Shown: positions 11,322 through 62,776 of the stretch, piece after piece
How the letters are laid out: each line of letters starts with the position of its first letter
Numbering within the stretch: the stretch's first letter is position 1
Virus record (IMG/VR): IMGVR_UViG_3300026488_000010
Origin: a virus
Length of the DNA: 64,000 nucleotides
Reading direction: 5' to 3' (one strand)
The notes under the pieces: model-generated
What the model was told of the DNA's origin: nothing
Seen by the model: the letters and a program-made list of their open reading frames with translations, nothing else
Database searches by the model: none
Made by a program: the position numbers and the translations under genes

Positions 11322-11367
11322 AAAACGATCTTTATCGATAAAGATCGTTTTAGTTAATATAGAAATA
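11322..11367. promoter_or_regulatory. 30-bp perfect palindrome plus conserved 15-mer GTTAATATAGAAATA
   Basis: AAAACGATCTTTATCGATAAAGATCGTTTT at 11322-11351; 15-mer at 11353-11367. Confidence 0.6.
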
Positions 11368-30014: not shown

Positions 30015-30178
30015 GATAAAACGATCTTTAAAGATCGTTTTATCTTGGATTAAAAACCTTATTTCTATATTAACTTTTCTATCTTTAATGATCGTTTTAT
30101 ATATAGTTGATAAGTTAACGTTTTACAACACAGTAGTAAAAATAAATATAAAAACGATCTTTAAAGATCGTTTTTATA
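30015..30178. repeat. Intergenic cluster: two copies of the 24-bp palindrome flanking a reverse-oriented palindrome plus 15-mer module
   Basis: AAAACGATCTTTAAAGATCGTTTT at 30018-30041 and 30151-30174; TATTTCTATATTAAC at 30060-30074. Confidence 0.85.
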
Positions 30179-30198: not shown

Positions 30199-31107
30199 AT
30201 GAAATTACATTATTATAACGATGGTCTTTTAAAGAGTCTAAAAAATCTATATTTTTCGAAACTTGAAAAATATGTGCCAGGTATGAAAGATGTTTTATTA
30301 AATAAAAAACCGTTCGTGGTCCATAATGCAGGTGTACCTCAAGAATTGATAAAAGATATGAATCAATACAATTACGGAGTATCTGATTATTTATCTGGAG
30401 AAGATTTAATTAATCCTCGATCAAATTTTATGCAAGATAAAGAACGTCAGCTTCAAAATATAAATTCATTATTACAAATAATGTTTGATTATGGATTATC
30501 TGAAACAACTAGATTAGTAATAGACACACTCAATTTATTCGATGGTAAATCTGTATTAGTTGGTGGAGCAATTCGTGATGCATTAAATGGTGAGGTTCCC
30601 CATGATTATGATTTTGCAACAGATATTCCATACGCATCATTAGAGATGATTTTTAGAGGCAGAGGCTTTAAATGTATTGAGGCAGGTAATCAATTTAAAG
30701 TTTTACATATTTCAAAAGATGGTGAAAAATTCGAGATTGCAAATTTCAGATGCGATGGTGAATATATTGATGGAAAGCCTGTTCAAGTTGAAATTGGCAC
30801 AATTATAGATGATGTCTATCGCAGAGATTTCACCGTAAATTCATTAATGGTTGATTTAAGAACTGTGATGGTTTTAGATATAACTGGTCAAGGGATTGAT
30901 GATACAATTTCAAAAACTTTACGTTTTGTTGGTAACCCACAAGAGAGGTTAGATGAAGATCTTTTAAGAGTTTATCGTGCATATAGATTTGCAGCTAAAG
31001 GTTATAAAATGGAACCTAAAACGTTGACAGCTGTTCGTAGAAATTTTGAATGTGCTCAAAAAACAGTTGCTGCTGAAAGAGTTAAAAATGAATTGGAGAA
31101 ACTATGA
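30199..31107 (+). CDS. Class II tRNA nucleotidyltransferase (CCA/poly(A) polymerase family), head and neck region only
   Basis: VGGAIRD, DYDFAT, RRDFTVN, EDLLRVYRAYRF, ERVKNEL followed by a stop. Confidence 0.85.
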   Translation: MKLHYYNDGLLKSLKNLYFSKLEKYVPGMKDVLLNKKPFVVHNAGVPQELIKDMNQYNYGVSDYLSGEDLINPRSNFMQDKERQLQNINSLLQIMFDYGLSETTRLVIDTLNLFDGKSVLVGGAIRDALNGEVPHDYDFATDIPYASLEMIFRGRGFKCIEAGNQFKVLHISKDGEKFEIANFRCDGEYIDGKPVQVEIGTIIDDVYRRDFTVNSLMVDLRTVMVLDITGQGIDDTISKTLRFVGNPQERLDEDLLRVYRAYRFAAKGYKMEPKTLTAVRRNFECAQKTVAAERVKNELEKL

Positions 31108-33152: not shown

Positions 33153-33379
33153 TGAAAGAAGTAATTATTTTAGATTCTTGGACGGCTAAAGGCCTATCAG
33201 AAGAGATTAATGTATATTTAAAAAATGGTTGGAATATATGTGATGCTGTACCAGGAGTTGTACCTGGTAGTGTTCATGGTGCAACATCTGGACATTTTTA
33301 TATAATGCTTGAGCGCGAGATTGAAAATAAAGAAACTAAAGAAACTAAAAAAACTAAAAATGATAAAAAAGGATTTTAA
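33152..33379 (+). CDS. Small protein, DUF1737-like pattern
   Basis: LSEEINVYLKNGWNI...FYIMLER. Confidence 0.5.
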   Translation: MKEVIILDSWTAKGLSEEINVYLKNGWNICDAVPGVVPGSVHGATSGHFYIMLEREIENKETKETKKTKNDKKGF

Positions 33380-33448
33380 TGAAATTTACATTTAATAAAA
33401 AAGATTTTAATGAAATTTACATTTAATAAAAAAGGATTTTAATGAAAT
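33364..33448 (+). repeat. ~32-nt direct repeat, 2.7 copies, at the end of the endonuclease gene
   Basis: TAAAAAAG(G)ATTTTAATGAAATTTACATTTAA twice plus a partial third copy. Confidence 0.85.
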
Positions 33449-34254
33449 CTAGCATACCATCCAATGCAAAATCCTCTGTCAGATTTTATAGCTCGTGTCT
33501 GCCAAGATTTATTTTCATATAATATTGTATTGTTTATATATGTTTTACACATTGCACCGTATGGTAAATTTAATTCGTAACATTTTGATTTAAAATTACC
33601 ATTACATTCACATACAACATTATCATTATTATCAAAAATTATTATTTTTTTCGAGTTTGGATTTTTATTTCCTGAAGTGTTTCTATTTTTACATCCTTCT
33701 TTTATAGATGCTCTAATCTTAGCATTAATGATTGGATCAGATTTTGTTCTTCGTTGCTTTTCTGAAGCAGTTTTATAAATATTAGAAGCATCATGGTGGG
33801 TTTTAGACCAATGTTCATTCTTATTATAATATTCTTTTAATGTTTTTGATATTTTTTGAGAGTTGTTTTTATAAAACAACTCTTTTTCATCGATTGACAT
33901 CTTACTGGTAAAATGTTCATCACCTGAATGTATTAGATAAAATGTTACACATTGATTTGCCTTATTTAAAAATTTTGGATGATATCGAACATCAAAATAA
34001 TGATGATATTTAGATTCAAATTTTATAGCATCTTTGCGATTATTAAAAATATATAATATTTTATATTTAAATCTCGGATGATCTTTTTTTTGATCAATTA
34101 TAAATTGTTTATTAGTCGAAGAAGAATAATATACATTACCTAGATCATCAATGGGTAATATATTACAACTTCTTGAACCAACATAATGCATTGAATTGTG
34201 TTTATCAGTTATTCGATAAACATAATGATATTGTTTCGTTGTATTATTTGACAT
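33439..34254 (-). mobile_element. Free-standing Seg-like GIY-YIG homing endonuclease in reverse orientation
   Basis: YHYVYRIT...HYVGSRS...YYSSS; C-terminal GNKNPNSKKIII; the only substantial minus-strand gene in the + block. Confidence 0.8.
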
Positions 34255-34303: not shown

Positions 34304-35806
34304 ATGAAAGAAAATATTAAAGTTAAATATAAAGGTATAGATATAGAGATTATACTTATACATGTCGCTGGGTCAAGGTTATATGGCACATCAAATAGTG
34401 AATCAGATTGGGATTATCGAGGAGTATTCATATCTGATATAAAATCAAAAGTTGGCTTATTAGAACAATTAGAAATAATCGAATCTCGTAATGATAAAGA
34501 ATTTTTTATTAAATTAAATAATGATTATAATTTAGGTATGAAAGATTGCGATGATATCGTTTTATGGGAAATTAAAAAATTTACAGAAATGTTGTCAAAT
34601 GGGAATCCAAACACATTAGATTCAATAACTTTTGATAGCCTTTCAGATGCAAATATTTATTGTAATGATCAAGGACATTACTTGCTTAGTCATAAACAAT
34701 TGTTTATGACAAAAAAATTAAAACATACATTCTCAGGTTATGCTATGTCACAGCTACATAAGATCAAAAATCATAATAGATGGATTGAAAAATATCCAAT
34801 GTCAACATTAGTTTTACAAATGTTAGTTACTCATAGAAACAATCGAAGAATTGATCGTACATGGGTTTCTGATAATTTTGGTGGAAGAGTAGCATCTGAA
34901 TTATTTGATGATCATATTTTTCCAGCATTAGCCGTTGATGAAAAATTGCCTACTAATATGAGTGTTGACACATTCTTTAAATGTCATGATGTAGAATATC
35001 CTCAATTCGCTTTTCCTAAAGTAGATATTACTGAACTTAAAAGATATATGATTCCTAGAATGATTGATTATGTAAAAGCATTCGATCAAAAAGCCAAGAG
35101 ATTAGATTTGGATGCACCTTTTGAAATGAGTATAGGAAATGATATCGAAGTATTAACGATTAGAGATTTATTATTAGAATCTGGTTCTTTCAGAGCACTT
35201 GGTGGATCAATATTAAATATTTTTACTGATGGTTCAGGCATCTTTGATAGACAAGGTTCTGTTAAGAAACATCCTCCTGAAGAAGTTGGAGATTTTGTGT
35301 GTTCTATCATTATCGATAAAGATCGTTATAAAGCTGACTTCGACGAAGTCTCTAAAATGTGGAAATGGAAGATTGAACGAAACATTGCAAGATCTGTACT
35401 CGAAGATAAACATGGTTATGATACAAAACATGCAAGTCATTTATATCGATTAATGATTGGAGCTGAACATACTCTTAGAGATTGTTTATTTGACCCTGTA
35501 TTAACAGATGATGATTTACAAATGGTAAAAGATGTTCGATATGGAAAATATGAATATGATGAAATTATAGCATATGCTAAGAAATCAGAAGAGTTATTAG
35601 ATGTATTATATGAATCATCAACATTACCACAAAAGGTAGATATTCATAAAATAAATAAACTATTACTTGAACTTCAAGGTGTGTCGTCGAGTGTGTCGAG
35701 TGTGTCGAGTGTGTCGAGTGTGTCGAGTGTGTTGAGTGTGTCGAGTGTGTCGAGTGTGTCGAGTGTGTCGAGTGTGTCGAGTGTGTCGAGTGTGTCGAGT
35801 GTATAA
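34304..35806 (+). CDS. Pol-beta-superfamily nucleotidyltransferase (RlaP / T4 NrdC.11-like) with an (SSV)n tail
   Basis: GSRLYGTS...SDWDYRGVF, NGNPN, YDTKHASHLYRL. Confidence 0.8.
   Translation: MKENIKVKYKGIDIEIILIHVAGSRLYGTSNSESDWDYRGVFISDIKSKVGLLEQLEIIESRNDKEFFIKLNNDYNLGMKDCDDIVLWEIKKFTEMLSNGNPNTLDSITFDSLSDANIYCNDQGHYLLSHKQLFMTKKLKHTFSGYAMSQLHKIKNHNRWIEKYPMSTLVLQMLVTHRNNRRIDRTWVSDNFGGRVASELFDDHIFPALAVDEKLPTNMSVDTFFKCHDVEYPQFAFPKVDITELKRYMIPRMIDYVKAFDQKAKRLDLDAPFEMSIGNDIEVLTIRDLLLESGSFRALGGSILNIFTDGSGIFDRQGSVKKHPPEEVGDFVCSIIIDKDRYKADFDEVSKMWKWKIERNIARSVLEDKHGYDTKHASHLYRLMIGAEHTLRDCLFDPVLTDDDLQMVKDVRYGKYEYDEIIAYAKKSEELLDVLYESSTLPQKVDIHKINKLLLELQGVSSSVSSVSSVSSVSSVLSVSSVSSVSSVSSVSSVSSVSSV
35687..35803 (+). 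repeat. 9-nt tandem repeat TCGAGTGTG, 13 copies (one TTGAGTGTG variant), encoding (SSV)n
   Basis: Read directly from the sequence. Confidence 0.95.
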
Positions 35807-38746: not shown

Positions 38747-38784
38747 TTCTATCTTTAAAGATAGAAATTATTAACATAGAAATA
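38747..38784 (+). promoter_or_regulatory. Palindrome plus 15-mer module variant upstream of thyX
   Basis: TTCTATCTTTAAAGATAGAA followed by ATTAACATAGAAATA. Confidence 0.55.
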
Positions 38785-42807: not shown

Positions 42808-42820
42808 TTTGGGAAATATA

Positions 42821-42933
42821 ATAGTTAATATAGAAATATTAACTATTTTTCCCTACTTTTCTAGTTAACTTTTAATATTTTTTGATAATTATTGAAACTA
42901 TCTTTAAAGATAGAAAAAGTTAATATAGAAATA
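42821..42933 (+). promoter_or_regulatory. Two copies of the 15-mer (one within an 11-bp hairpin) and a CTATCTTTAAAGATAG palindrome upstream of the nrd cluster
   Basis: 15-mer at 42824-42838 and 42919-42933; palindrome at 42898-42913. Confidence 0.6.
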
Positions 42934-48520: not shown

Positions 48521-49300
48521 ATGACTGAATTACAACAAGCAAAAGCTCAAGAACTATTAAATAATGTTTTTGGAAAAATGGACCAACTGATTGATGAATT
48601 GATCCCAGGTATCGTTCCAGCAAATAATGAAGATTATAAAAAACGTGATATGCAAGATGAATTTAATGAATTTATTAAGTCTATGAAATCACAGGCACAG
48701 CAGGCACGTCAGTCTGGAAAACTAACTGAAACTGACAATAATGATGCAAATGATGCAAATGATGCAAATGATGCTAATGATGCAAATGATGCAAATGATG
48801 CTAATGATGCAAATGATGCAAATGATGCTCCTAAAAAGATTGAACTATCATATTCAGTTATTCAAGCACAAATGAACAAAGCGGCTTCAGTTATATCTGA
48901 AGATTACGATGTTATTTTATGTATTACACGCGGGGGATTGATTCCTGCTGGAATGCTTGCTTATCAACTAGGAATTAAAGATATTGTATCAGTTAAAATT
49001 GTATCATATGATGACACAGATACACTAACCGGTTCAGTTGTTGATAAAATGTCTAAAAAAGATATTAAAAAATTAAAAGCTGCTAAAAAAGTTTTAGTTG
49101 TTGATGATATTGTTGATTCTGGTAGTACTTTAATTGCATTGCATCAATATTTAAATTCAGCTCTTGGTTTAAGCGCTGATGATTTAAACAAAAAATATTC
49201 AACATTCTCAATCGTCACAAAAGACATTGCGTTTAATGACTATTCAATTTATAATATGACTGGCGATGAACGTTGGGTAGTATTTCCTTGGGATAAATAA
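48521..49300 (+). CDS. Type I phosphoribosyltransferase (xanthine/hypoxanthine PRT-like) with an N-terminal extension; track start 48401
   Basis: ITRGGLIPA, VVDDIVDSGST, WVVFPW; AGGA RBS before ATG 48521. Confidence 0.8.
   Translation: MTELQQAKAQELLNNVFGKMDQLIDELIPGIVPANNEDYKKRDMQDEFNEFIKSMKSQAQQARQSGKLTETDNNDANDANDANDANDANDANDANDANDANDAPKKIELSYSVIQAQMNKAASVISEDYDVILCITRGGLIPAGMLAYQLGIKDIVSVKIVSYDDTDTLTGSVVDKMSKKDIKKLKAAKKVLVVDDIVDSGSTLIALHQYLNSALGLSADDLNKKYSTFSIVTKDIAFNDYSIYNMTGDERWVVFPWDK
48740..48829 (+). repeat. 9-nt tandem repeat AATGATGC(A/T), 10 copies, encoding (NDA)10
   Basis: Read directly; GCT variants at units 4, 7 and 10 give a 27-nt higher-order period. Confidence 0.95.
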
Positions 49301-60752: not shown

Positions 60753-61115
60753 ATGAAAGAAAGATTACAAAATGGATCAGTGCATATAAACTATGCAAAT
60801 ATTGATTATTTAGAAGCTCGTGAAGTTGATGGTATGTTTAAATTATTTTACCCATCGAAGCCAAAAATTAAAACAGAAATGTTAGAATTACCAAAATCGT
60901 TTACAAATATGTTAAATGTAAATAAATTTATGAAAGAGATTGGATACATAAAGACTCAAGGATTTTATATAAATAAAAATCGTTTTTGTGTTGTATCAGA
61001 AGGTGAATTATCAAAAACAAAAAGAGAAGTCACATTTCAAATGATGACTTCAAAATTAATTGTAAATATTCCAGAAACTGAATGGTTGCAAATTAAGAAC
61101 TCTCAGCTTAGATAA
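60753..61115 (+). CDS. Hypothetical protein
   Basis: AAGGA RBS; last + strand gene. Confidence 0.55.
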   Translation: MKERLQNGSVHINYANIDYLEAREVDGMFKLFYPSKPKIKTEMLELPKSFTNMLNVNKFMKEIGYIKTQGFYINKNRFCVVSEGELSKTKREVTFQMMTSKLIVNIPETEWLQIKNSQLR

Positions 61116-61150
61116 GCAAGAGAGTTCTTCTCTTGTGGCAAAATTCAAGA

Positions 61151-61416
61151 GATCGTTTTATAAAGAATAAAAAATATTCTTTATAAAACGATCTTTAAAG
61201 ATCGTTTTTATTTTTGAAGGTCTTAAAGTGTTGTATATTAGTCACTTCTGTGCAATTTACAAAACGATCTTTAAAGATCGTTTTTATTTTTACAAAACGA
61301 TCTTTAAAGATCGTTTTTATTTTTACAAAACGATCTTTAAAGATCGTTTTTATTTTTACAAAACGATCTTTAAAGATCGTTTTTATTTTTACAAAACGAT
61401 CTTTAAAGATCGTTTT
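61151..61416. repeat. Palindrome array: 19-bp inverted repeat, one solitary 24-bp palindrome and five tandem 33-nt units
   Basis: AAAACGATCTTTAAAGATCGTTTT at 61185, 61261, 61294, 61327, 61360 and 61393; linker TATTTTTAC; inverted repeat 61151-61169 / 61175-61193. Confidence 0.95.
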
Positions 61417-61420
61417 TGAG

Positions 61421-61455
61421 GACAAGAAAATATAGCAGAGAAATCTGCTATATTT
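61421..61455 (-). terminator. Terminator-like hairpin for the minus-strand tail genes
   Basis: AAATATAGCAGA-4 nt-TCTGCTATATTT; on the minus strand it runs into TTTTCTTGTC. Confidence 0.75.
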
Positions 61456-62776
61456 ATAAAATTCTCCAATCGTTATTGATTGCTATAAAACGAGTAGCTT
61501 TATTAGCAGCGATTAAATGATAATCTGCTCCTGAACCCATAATATTATTTACGGATTTAAGTATTGGTCCTTTAGAACCAAAAGTATTTGTATAATCAAA
61601 AATTCCAACTTCTGCAAAATCATTGGGGTTTGCTGGAAATGTTATTGTACATGTTCCATCAAAGTTTGGTGTCGAATTTGAGTTACTTAAATTTGACCCA
61701 GTGCTTAACGTAAAAGCATCTCCAGCATTTGAAGCTGTAAATGTTATAGTGTTTGCATCTGATGTTAAATTTACAGGTTTGCCTAAAGCATTGACTTGTG
61801 ATTTAATACCTGTTATAATTTCATCTTTTGTGTCAGCATGATTTGGTATAGTATTTGATTGTGTGAAATTAGATCCAGCACTTAATGAAAATGATGTTCC
61901 TCGAACATTTGCAGTTACTGTAATACTTGACGCATCATTAATGATACTAACAGGCTTGCCTAATGCAACCATTGCATCTTTTAACCCTGACACTATTTGC
62001 GAGATTGTTGCAGATGTAGCTGCTGTTATTAATGCTGCTGACATTTGTCCAGATGTAACAGATAATGAAAAAGCATCTCCTGATACATCACCAACAATTG
62101 TTATTTTATCGGCTGCTGCAGTTGCGGTTACTGCAGCAGCCGAACCATTTATTTGTGAAGTTAAATCATTAATTATATTTGTAATATCATCTCCAGCAAT
62201 TGATGTATATGATAGTGAAATACCATCTACAGATATCTCATATATATCATCATCAACTTGGGTAAATGAATTGAGCTCACGTGTCTCAACGTTTCCACCT
62301 GATGTGTAATCAGCATTGGTCCCTTCAAGTGTTGCTCTATATAATGTTTCATTTACAGCTGTAAATGAATTTAATTTATCAACTTGTTTTGTCCCTGATA
62401 TATAATTAGCAGTTGACGAATTTAAAGTTACAGCATATGTATAATTCTGAGCAACAGTCACCGATGTAATTTTATCTACTTGTGCTATGCGATCAGATGT
62501 GTCTACAAATACAAAATCATCTACTTCTAAAGTACTATGTGTATTTATAACTTTATAATTTGCAGCTTTCCCTCCAGCATTTTCCATAATGAATGCTAAA
62601 TTATAATTTAACTTATCATTTAATCTTTCATCACCTTCTGGGATAAAATATATTCCAGATTCTTCTGCTGCACCGAAATCAGCATTTAACGTTCCGGCTG
62701 CTAGTGCTGCCTTATCTGATGCAGCACTCGATGCATTTCCTGCATCAATATTATTAAATATTGTATCTAAACCCAT
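61454..62776 (-). CDS. Tail/tail-fibre-associated structural protein with internal repeats
   Basis: VFVDTS...TITFPANP..F..V.I.D fibre-type module; three A-type and three B-type internal repeats; AAGGA RBS. Confidence 0.65.
   Translation of the reverse strand: MGLDTIFNNIDAGNASSAASDKAALAAGTLNADFGAAEESGIYFIPEGDERLNDKLNYNLAFIMENAGGKAANYKVINTHSTLEVDDFVFVDTSDRIAQVDKITSVTVAQNYTYAVTLNSSTANYISGTKQVDKLNSFTAVNETLYRATLEGTNADYTSGGNVETRELNSFTQVDDDIYEISVDGISLSYTSIAGDDITNIINDLTSQINGSAAAVTATAAADKITIVGDVSGDAFSLSVTSGQMSAALITAATSATISQIVSGLKDAMVALGKPVSIINDASSITVTANVRGTSFSLSAGSNFTQSNTIPNHADTKDEIITGIKSQVNALGKPVNLTSDANTITFTASNAGDAFTLSTGSNLSNSNSTPNFDGTCTITFPANPNDFAEVGIFDYTNTFGSKGPILKSVNNIMGSGADYHLIAANKATRFIAINNDWRIL

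Follow-up and report, generated by a model that had tools for sequence, protein, structure and literature searches.

The DNA investigated in this study, a window of 64,000 nucleotides, belongs to an AT-rich, T4-related uncultured jumbo phage. It has a G+C content of 29% and encodes rIIA, rIIB, NrdA, NrdB, a Dda-type helicase, ThyX, a dUTPase, an RNA ligase and enzymes of NAD salvage, with the best rIIA matches from cultured phages being only about 30% identical. Nearly all genes are found on the plus strand up to position 61115 and on the minus strand thereafter. At this switch, a plus-strand gene coding for a protein of 120 residues and a minus-strand gene coding for a protein of 440 residues converge on a gap of 338 bp, which is delimited by the ends of both genes at 61115 and 61454 in the ORF list. 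The 440-residue protein shows no PHROG or Pfam match and its relatives are 93%, 61% and 46% identical. The gap harbors six copies of a perfect palindrome of 24 bp between 61185 and 61416, five of them arranged in tandem and one located 52 nt upstream (Table 1). Gene orientation and GC skew both switch at this array, the switch in skew being confounded with gene orientation.

The exact 24-mer is also present in eight metagenome contigs (L001-L008), which originate from three samples, and the sequence read for the comparison comprises 64 kb of this genome and about 40 kb of relatives. Six of the eight contigs are gene-syntenic with the window and share 68-84% nucleotide identity over aligned coding DNA. 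The array locus is spanned by L004, L001 and L005 and a second locus at 30 kb by L002 and L006, whereas L003, L007 and L008 have only repeat elements in common with the window. A locus search based on rIIB gave one distant locus, which was left out of the comparison, and searches for related loci with the 440-residue protein and with the proteins P0007 and P0011 revealed no further relatives. Our phage collection contained no nucleotide match to the window, near or distant, and no match in tblastn searches with the 120-residue protein and its relative P0011. No copy of the 24-mer was detected in IMG/VR or in the species genomes, and the 16-mer cores retrieved from IMG/VR, in 79 contigs, were single chance matches without similarity to the window. 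The core motif is also absent from the searchable literature.

Table 1. Genes and sequence elements of the window discussed in the text (a point in the strand column marks elements listed without orientation).
Feature	Position	Strand	Description
Variant palindrome with box	11322-11366	+	between rIIB and rIIA; box 8 bp after right half
Second cluster	30018-30174	.	exact palindromes starting at 30018 and 30151; hybrid 30075-30098; box 30061-30073 on - strand
CCA-enzyme-like gene	30199-31107		poly(A) polymerase/CCA-adding head domain PF01743
AGAAA-flank palindrome with promoter-like box	38747-38783	+	upstream of thyX
AGAAA-flank palindrome with promoter-like box	42898-42932	+	upstream of nrd cluster
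120-aa ORF	60753-61115	+	last gene of + block; LytTR-fold protein, candidate binder of the palindrome family
Terminator T1 of + block	61095-61138	+	hairpin then CTCTTGTGG tail; RNA fold -22.8 kcal/mol, z -4.7
Inverted repeat	61150-61194	.	20-bp arms 61150-61169 / 61175-61194, 5-nt loop
Palindrome copy 1	61185-61208	.	both halves of CGTTTT type; exact match
52-nt spacer of 76-bp palindrome-spacer-palindrome composite	61209-61260	+	middle (~61222-61246) partly conserved
33-bp tandem array	61256-61417	+	TRF; exact palindromes starting at 61261 (reference copy 61261-61284), 61294, 61327, 61360 and 61393
Terminator T2 of - gene	61420-61455	-	hairpin then TTTTCTTGTCC; RNA fold -13.4 kcal/mol, z -6.4
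Converging 440-aa gene	61454-62776	-	fibre-like repeats; ORF list

Organisation of the convergent gap

The first-pass annotation had described five identical units of 33 nt and a sixth copy 52 nt upstream that together fill the strand-switch gap, a description that is confirmed by TRF, by exact matches and by the ends of the open reading frames. TRF calls a sole array at this location with a period of 33, 4.9 copies, 100% matches, no indels and a score of 324, and exact copies of the 24-mer are not expected by chance, as judged from 100 dinucleotide shuffles. Adjacent palindromes are connected by linkers of 9 nt, which are T-rich on the plus strand and identical between units, and this lack of unique spacers bears out the earlier view that the repeats do not constitute a CRISPR array. 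The centres of the half-sites within the array are alternately 12 and 21 bp apart, spacings of 32-34 bp, equivalent to about three helical turns, are seen in the window and again in L001, and the array region contains 12 GATC sites within 232 bp. Because the units are identical, linkers included, the tandem looks young, and it is probably the product of a recent slipped-strand or unequal-crossover expansion rather than an old fixed design.

The interlocking of the array with an inverted repeat, which had also been noted before, is present as described, although the arms extend over 20 bp and not 19 bp. An orphan half-site opens the left arm, and the left half of the first palindrome is supplied by the right arm, which shares 10 nt with this palindrome. 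The inverted repeat is unique to this genome; in the alignment, neither L004 nor L001 has it in the gap. The spacing of the 76-bp composite recurs together with a related spacer in L004 and L003. As an alternative to a non-coding element, a coding repeat was considered and rejected: the frames that are open across the array start with TTG or GTG, are without relatives and are lost together with the array.

Tandem repeats are also found elsewhere in the window. A 9-bp unit with 13.4 copies and 97% matches (35681-35802) is located at the 3' end of a nucleotidyltransferase-like ORF (34304-35806), where it encodes in frame a tail of Val-Cys-Arg repeats, and two further tandems have in-frame lengths, a 12-bp unit repeated eight times (1-97) and a 9-bp unit repeated ten times (48740-48828). 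A 31-bp unit of 2.7 copies (33363-33448) resides at the 3' end of a homing-endonuclease-like ORF (33439-34254), which is the only minus-strand gene within the plus block.

The flanking genes do not rely on the array for their 3' ends, each being equipped with a hairpin and a T-rich tail that precede it. The separate terminator that had been proposed for the minus-strand gene is thus found in T2, and the plus-strand gene has its own in T1. Since both converging genes end in a terminator of their own, the array lies outside of both transcription units and is not needed for primary termination. In this clade, true terminators consist of a G+C-richer hairpin followed by a TTTTCTTGT-like tail (146, 2405, 61428 on the minus strand and 61095-61138). 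The stem of T1 differs in L004, L001 and L005 with its T-rich CTTGTG tail being retained, and the stem of T2 is altered in L004, L001 and L003 with its tail being conserved. When the gaps of the window, L004 and L001 are aligned, the terminator stems have drifted and the tails are kept, whereas the palindromes are identical. Palindrome clusters of L003 and L007 are likewise placed between a true terminator and the gene that comes next. As a side aspect, the tail shared by the terminators of the clade, TTTTCTTGT followed by C or G (120-155, 2385-2415, 61095-61138 on the plus and 61420-61455 on the minus strand; L001, L003, L004, L005 and L007), constitutes a 3' motif more specific than is usual for intrinsic terminators.

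A single unit of the array comprises an A-run, a stem of 10 bp with G-C pairs at three of the ten positions, a loop of 4 nt and a T-run, and its RNA fold has an energy of -10 kcal/mol (z -5). The T-runs initially assigned to both strands are found after each unit on the plus strand, as T5-A-T5 giving a U5AU5 tail, whereas the minus strand offers merely T4-G, equivalent to U4G, and the plus strand is the only one on which the units are recognised as terminator-like.

A dispersed palindrome family and its partner box

The invariant part of the palindrome is a central core of 12 bp, ATCTTTAAAGAT, which is found 11 times in the window with every copy being intergenic. Across 33 copies from the window and its relatives, the core is constant save for a few single mismatches, and searches anchored on the flanks recover almost nothing but this core. 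The outer 6 nt of each half are either CGTTTT, AGAAAA, CGAAAA, CAAAAA or CATTTT, and about eight of the 33 copies are hybrids that join two of these flank forms, which weakens the hairpin by a stem mismatch. A rule relating such hybrids to the orientation of terminators fits L001 and fails in L003, where the genes run opposite, and was therefore rejected. At syntenic sites, the 24-mer is identical in 24 of 24 positions although the flanking proteins are merely 32-84% identical. Of the single recurrences reported by the first-pass annotation, those at 30018 and 30151 are exact, whereas a different palindrome is found at 11322, perfect over 30 bp, in which the two usual halves are joined through ATCGAT. 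Single copies start 6-8 nt past the stop codons of rIIB, of a gene for a protein of 138 residues and of the gene preceding thyX, and in the window, L002 and L006 a palindrome precedes the CCA-enzyme-like gene, 20-27 nt ahead of its start codon.

The arrangement of the copies varies between relatives. At the array locus, six palindromes are found in the window, two in L004 and four diverged ones in L001, with the 33-bp tandem being missing from the orthologous gap of L004 and diverged in L001. The orthologues of the 30-kb gap in L002 and L006 contain three palindromes each, which are arranged otherwise, and the contig L005 breaks at a palindrome. At four of 16 independent sites, palindromy reaches 3-8 bp past the conserved 24-mer into unrelated sequence (p of about 5e-4, or 0.01 with an AT-rich null). 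That palindromy persists through the insert and the extensions speaks less for a rigid dimer site than for a hairpin or cruciform, or for templated correction of palindromes, a mutational process known from T4, where it acts on quasi-palindromes during replication. An explanation in terms of GATC avoidance or Dam methylation was dropped, as the window contains 211 GATC sites compared to about 170 expected and is thus not depleted.

A second conserved sequence, a promoter-like box of 13-15 nt, accompanies the palindrome at a distance of 8 bp from the right half-site in six of ten pairs and of 7 or 9 bp in the other four. This distance holds despite differing sequence in the intervening gap and includes the 30-bp variant. 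In the window, the pairs, with the box at 42920-42932 serving as example, sit 46-58 nt upstream of rIIA, thyX and the nrd cluster. At 16-18 bp from the box, no -35 partner of sigma-70 type is present; the palindrome itself occupies this position. The units of the array are themselves without a box, and a scan for sigma-70-type promoters gave no match in front of the array. A lone box is located at 42825-42837. At the 30-kb cluster, a box on the minus strand (30015-30100 region) is directed towards an exact palindrome about 20-30 nt away, a layout that is kept in L002 (5683-5766) and that would yield a transcript of about 50 nt, antisense to nothing annotated. The box also forms the arms of larger inverted repeats, consisting of a box, a short loop and a reversed box (42808-42850; L008 1020-1135), in some cases with a palindrome on either side, so that the modules form mosaics of about 100 bp.

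A LytTR-fold protein encoded beside the array

The 120-residue protein encoded next to the array shows no Pfam match and no match in a profile search against PDB sequences. Its fold became apparent from predicted structures. The ESM Atlas pointed to LytTR look-alikes, and a profile search identified 22 related proteins of 115-130 residues. A model generated by AlphaFold2 on the resulting alignment of 23 sequences has a pLDDT of 93.8. Among 48,161 PDB representatives searched independently of Foldseek, Z reaches 5 or more in just three chains, all of which are LytTR structures, namely 3d6w (Z 7.6, 103 residues), ComE (4cbv, Z 7.4, 97 residues) and AgrA (3bs1, Z 6.6, 94 residues), followed by a next-best match with Z 4.9 over 42 residues. 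The top eight Foldseek matches are all LytTR (probability 0.99-1.00, E 6e-3 to 4e-2), and a first, weaker model had also given the LytTR fold. None of the 23 family members matches PF04397 at E<=1. Lys 38, Lys 40 and Asn 74 are invariant in the family and are located in or beside loops of the model. A near-copy of the CGTTTT-type half-site is found inside the gene itself (60974-60992), over invariant Ile-Asn codons, and is probably a coincidence of coding.

We consider this protein as candidate binder of the palindrome. The single feature that would link it to the site is adjacency in four related loci, with the gene adjoining the palindrome cluster also in the syntenic contigs L004, L001 and L005, and no paralogue was found at the other palindrome clusters. 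Apart from this gene, PHROG and Pfam searches of nearly all open reading frames of the window revealed no transcription factor, recombinase, ParA/ParB, MotA or transposase. The candidate was selected within the 64-kb window, and a better one may be encoded elsewhere in the genome. Its relationship to characterized LytTR regulators such as AgrA, ComE and HdrR/BrsR (PF04397) is found in the beta-rich fold, which extends over 94-103 of its 120 residues, whereas it differs from them in the lack of a match on the sequence level and in being a stand-alone protein, for which neither a receiver domain nor a membrane partner was detected. LytTR regulators bind paired direct repeats of 9-11 bp separated by a spacer of 11-13 bp (PMC6193735), which lie 4-11 bp upstream of promoters (PMC6193735, PMC4227749). 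In contrast, the candidate site is a palindrome or inverted repeat, and such a site would depart from the habit of the family.

Relation to known systems and function of the array

The closest known system is provided by the PeSL cassettes of T4-like phages. PeSL and PmSL are composite stem-loop-promoter cassettes described in RB49/phi1, PST/T4 and nt-1/KVP40 (PMC2839356, PMC4122927). As in the phage studied here, they form a repeated intergenic motif family in T4-related phages, in which a stem-loop flanked by an A-run and a T-run is placed directly before a promoter, followed by a ribosome-binding site and a start codon (here at the copies 11322, 38747 and 42898). Degraded or promoter-less copies, clustered copies and an arrangement that varies among close relatives are further features in common, and the authors of these studies speculated that the conserved stem is a possible protein target (PMC2839356, PMC4122927). 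Distinct from the cassettes, our element is an AT-rich perfect palindrome of 24 bp with an invariant core of 12 bp, letter-perfect across the described divergence of proteins; its box is neither a sigma-70 -35/-10 pair nor a Mot-box promoter, it also occurs as promoter-less tandem arrays downstream of separate true terminators, and a gene for a DNA-binding fold adjoins the array. A second likeness concerns the repeat regions RR1-RR4 of the Campylobacter group II phages CP21, CP220 and CPt10, which are equally AT-rich and T4-related. Their arrays of short units are located at borders of genome modules, including changes of orientation, with a unit number that varies between close relatives and extra single units being dispersed, and recombination or slippage was suspected (PMC4546147). 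However, their units of 72-86 bp contain a non-palindromic core of 13 nt and reach up to 18 copies per arm on a kilobase scale (PMC4546147), and no sequence similarity to the window was found; the likeness by itself establishes no kinship.

Comparable arrangements are also known outside of phages. On the F plasmid, sopB is directly followed by the tandem repeats of sopC, each with an inverted repeat, and the convergent gap resembles this layout in that a gene for a protein with DNA-binding fold is followed by tandem repeats holding inverted repeats. The two differ in that the 64-kb window revealed no gene for a partition ATPase, in the fold of the candidate binder, which is LytTR and not ParB or ribbon-helix-helix, and in the site family, which is here dispersed and linked to promoters. 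The REP and BIME elements of enterobacteria are extragenic palindromes, single and clustered, which often follow the ends of operons and lie between convergent genes, as found in this study. They have attenuator and protein-binding roles, and REP are imperfect, G+C-rich, chromosomal and spread by RAYT transposases. No RAYT gene was seen in the 64-kb window, and the phage setting would be unusual for them.

Our preferred interpretation, although held tentatively, is that the array is a cluster of sites for a phage DNA-binding protein that forms a transcription boundary, with attenuation by hairpin and U-tract as a second layer. In the array, a palindromic cis-element that is dispersed in the genome and conserved in the clade would then have accumulated locally in its promoter-less form, the element acting as sequence-specific recognition site for a phage-encoded DNA-binding protein. 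At rIIA, thyX and nrd, where the proximal half is located 8 +/- 1 bp upstream of the box, the element could serve as operator or activator site, whereas in the convergent gap at least six consecutive sites would recruit a complex of several proteins. This complex would constitute a boundary between the plus block encoding replication and nucleotide metabolism and the minus block of fibre and structural genes, with the weak hairpin and U-tract of each copy adding attenuation of plus-strand read-through. The analysis itself shows the anatomy, conservation and geometry of the element, its placement relative to the true terminators and the fold of the neighbouring protein; that a protein binds, which protein this is and that the array works as a boundary are what we infer from several features of the locus. 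Since the 24-mer is unchanged amid diverged proteins while terminator stems drift, selection appears to act on the sequence of the palindrome and not on its structure alone. The invariance of the core, the fixed offset of the box and the adjacent gene for a DNA-binding fold suggest sequence-specific recognition, which would most simply be exerted by a protein, whereas a role of the hairpin is suggested by the preserved palindromy and the U-tracts on the plus strand. Both roles are compatible, and the PeSL cassettes combine a terminator stem-loop with a promoter in this way (PMC2839356, PMC4122927). The earlier suggestion that the array does more than terminate transcription is in this respect upheld and strengthened by the self-termination of both genes, by the invariance of the palindrome compared to the drifting stems and by the LytTR-fold neighbour, and a protein-recognised control or boundary element is more likely than a mere stack of terminators. 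A broader proposal, in which the stand-alone LytTR-fold protein recognises the palindrome, controls promoters throughout the genome and builds boundaries or origin- and centromere-like platforms by means of arrays that directly follow its gene or mark other borders between modules, appears doubtful.

Among the alternatives, a pure RNA-level element of PeSL type would require no dedicated protein and would act as stacked weak bidirectional terminators or attenuators, providing a back-up against read-through from the 60-kb plus block into the fibre genes. We regard this as possible, if on balance unlikely. The architecture of the unit with its hairpin fold and U5AU5 tail, the position of single copies shortly after stop codons and the persistence of palindromy through inserts and flank extensions are all in its favor, and the layout fits that of PeSLs, where an A3-4G3-loop-C3T3-4 stem-loop just before the promoter terminates in reporters (PMC4122927, PMC2839356). 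However, such a function would not account for an invariant palindrome in a clade whose true terminators have G+C-richer, drifting stems, nor for the location of the array downstream of T1 and T2. The variable positions coincide with the base of the stem and the T-run, which are most important for termination, the AGAAA form has an A-run as tail, and the hybrid copies bear a mismatch in the stem. Moreover, the copy in front of the CCA-enzyme-like gene leaves no room for a promoter after it, and efficient termination at this place would silence the gene. More doubtful is the view of the array as neutral or selfish repeat, either a linker for recombination or an element of the REP/BIME or MITE kind that sits in a silent gap, with the fivefold tandem as functionless product of slippage. 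Its recent expansion, the variable copy number and arrangement in orthologous gaps, the break of a related contig at the palindrome (L005) and the combination of modules in both orientations to larger inverted repeats (L008, window 42808-42850) would agree with such an origin, as would the modular shuffling mediated by PeSLs (PMC2839356) and the unstable repeat regions between modules and dispersed single units of Campylobacter group II phages (PMC4546147). What argues for function, at least of the dispersed copies, is the fixed offset of the box combined with letter-perfect conservation across deep divergence; in addition, the 64-kb window contains no transposase or RAYT-like gene and a single gene for a homing endonuclease (33439-34254), and target-site duplications were not observed. 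Even so, the array itself may be neutral, its copy number not being conserved at the locus (six, two and four).

A replication origin, centromere or packaging platform of iteron or sopC type, loaded by the LytTR-fold protein encoded upstream, is improbable. The succession of a gene for a DNA-binding fold and tandem repeats with inverted repeats, the period of 33 bp close to three helical turns, the dense GATC sites and the location at the switch of gene orientation and skew would all suit such a platform, although the confounded skew and a GATC content that is not depleted elsewhere diminish the value of the latter features. The element is dispersed in several clusters and hence not a unique site, its copy number is not conserved, and no ParA-, Rep- or terminase-like gene is found nearby, the open reading frames between 52118 and 60740 being without such PHROG or Pfam match. 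Identical short tandem units that fold into hairpins would also be expected for a repeat RNA cut into 33-nt units, as ToxI-like antitoxin or RNA decoy, which the first-pass annotation had proposed with reference to ToxI and to RNA anti-CRISPRs. In the ToxI-type layout, a promoter is followed by tandem repeats of about 36 nt and then by the toxin gene on the same strand. The array has no sigma-70-type promoter match before it and no toxin-like or ToxN-like neighbour, it matches no Rfam family at threshold with sub-threshold hits being generic hairpins only, it lies beyond both terminators and its tandem is missing or diverged in the gaps of L004 and L001, and these proposals thus found no support and are highly improbable. 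An assembly artefact, which would concern the copy number only, is equally hard to credit, since palindrome and clustering recur in independent assemblies from three samples. The number of tandem copies is a different matter: a perfect repeat of 162 bp is about as long as one period added to the largest k in common use, the palindrome is where contigs of relatives end, and a de Bruijn assembly (k 127-141) would presumably produce about 162 bp of 33-bp units from any array of at least five. The five copies, as a number derived from short-read assembly, would be unreliable and are best regarded as a lower bound.

To our knowledge, hardly anything has been learned about the regulatory DNA of jumbo phages that have not been cultured. 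In the phage studied here, a short site conserved to the letter is combined with a promoter-like box at a fixed distance and with a protein that is a candidate for binding it. Should the pairing of protein and site fail, the family would still clearly add a new case to the PeSL-like cassettes by which genes are shuffled and short-read assemblies broken. We know of no study of the LytTR fold in phages and of no described counterpart of a LytTR-palindrome system that regulates or organises a genome. If the pairing is true, it would define a regulon spanning rIIA, thyX, nrd and further genes, and the array would provide a model for the insulation of converging early and late gene blocks.
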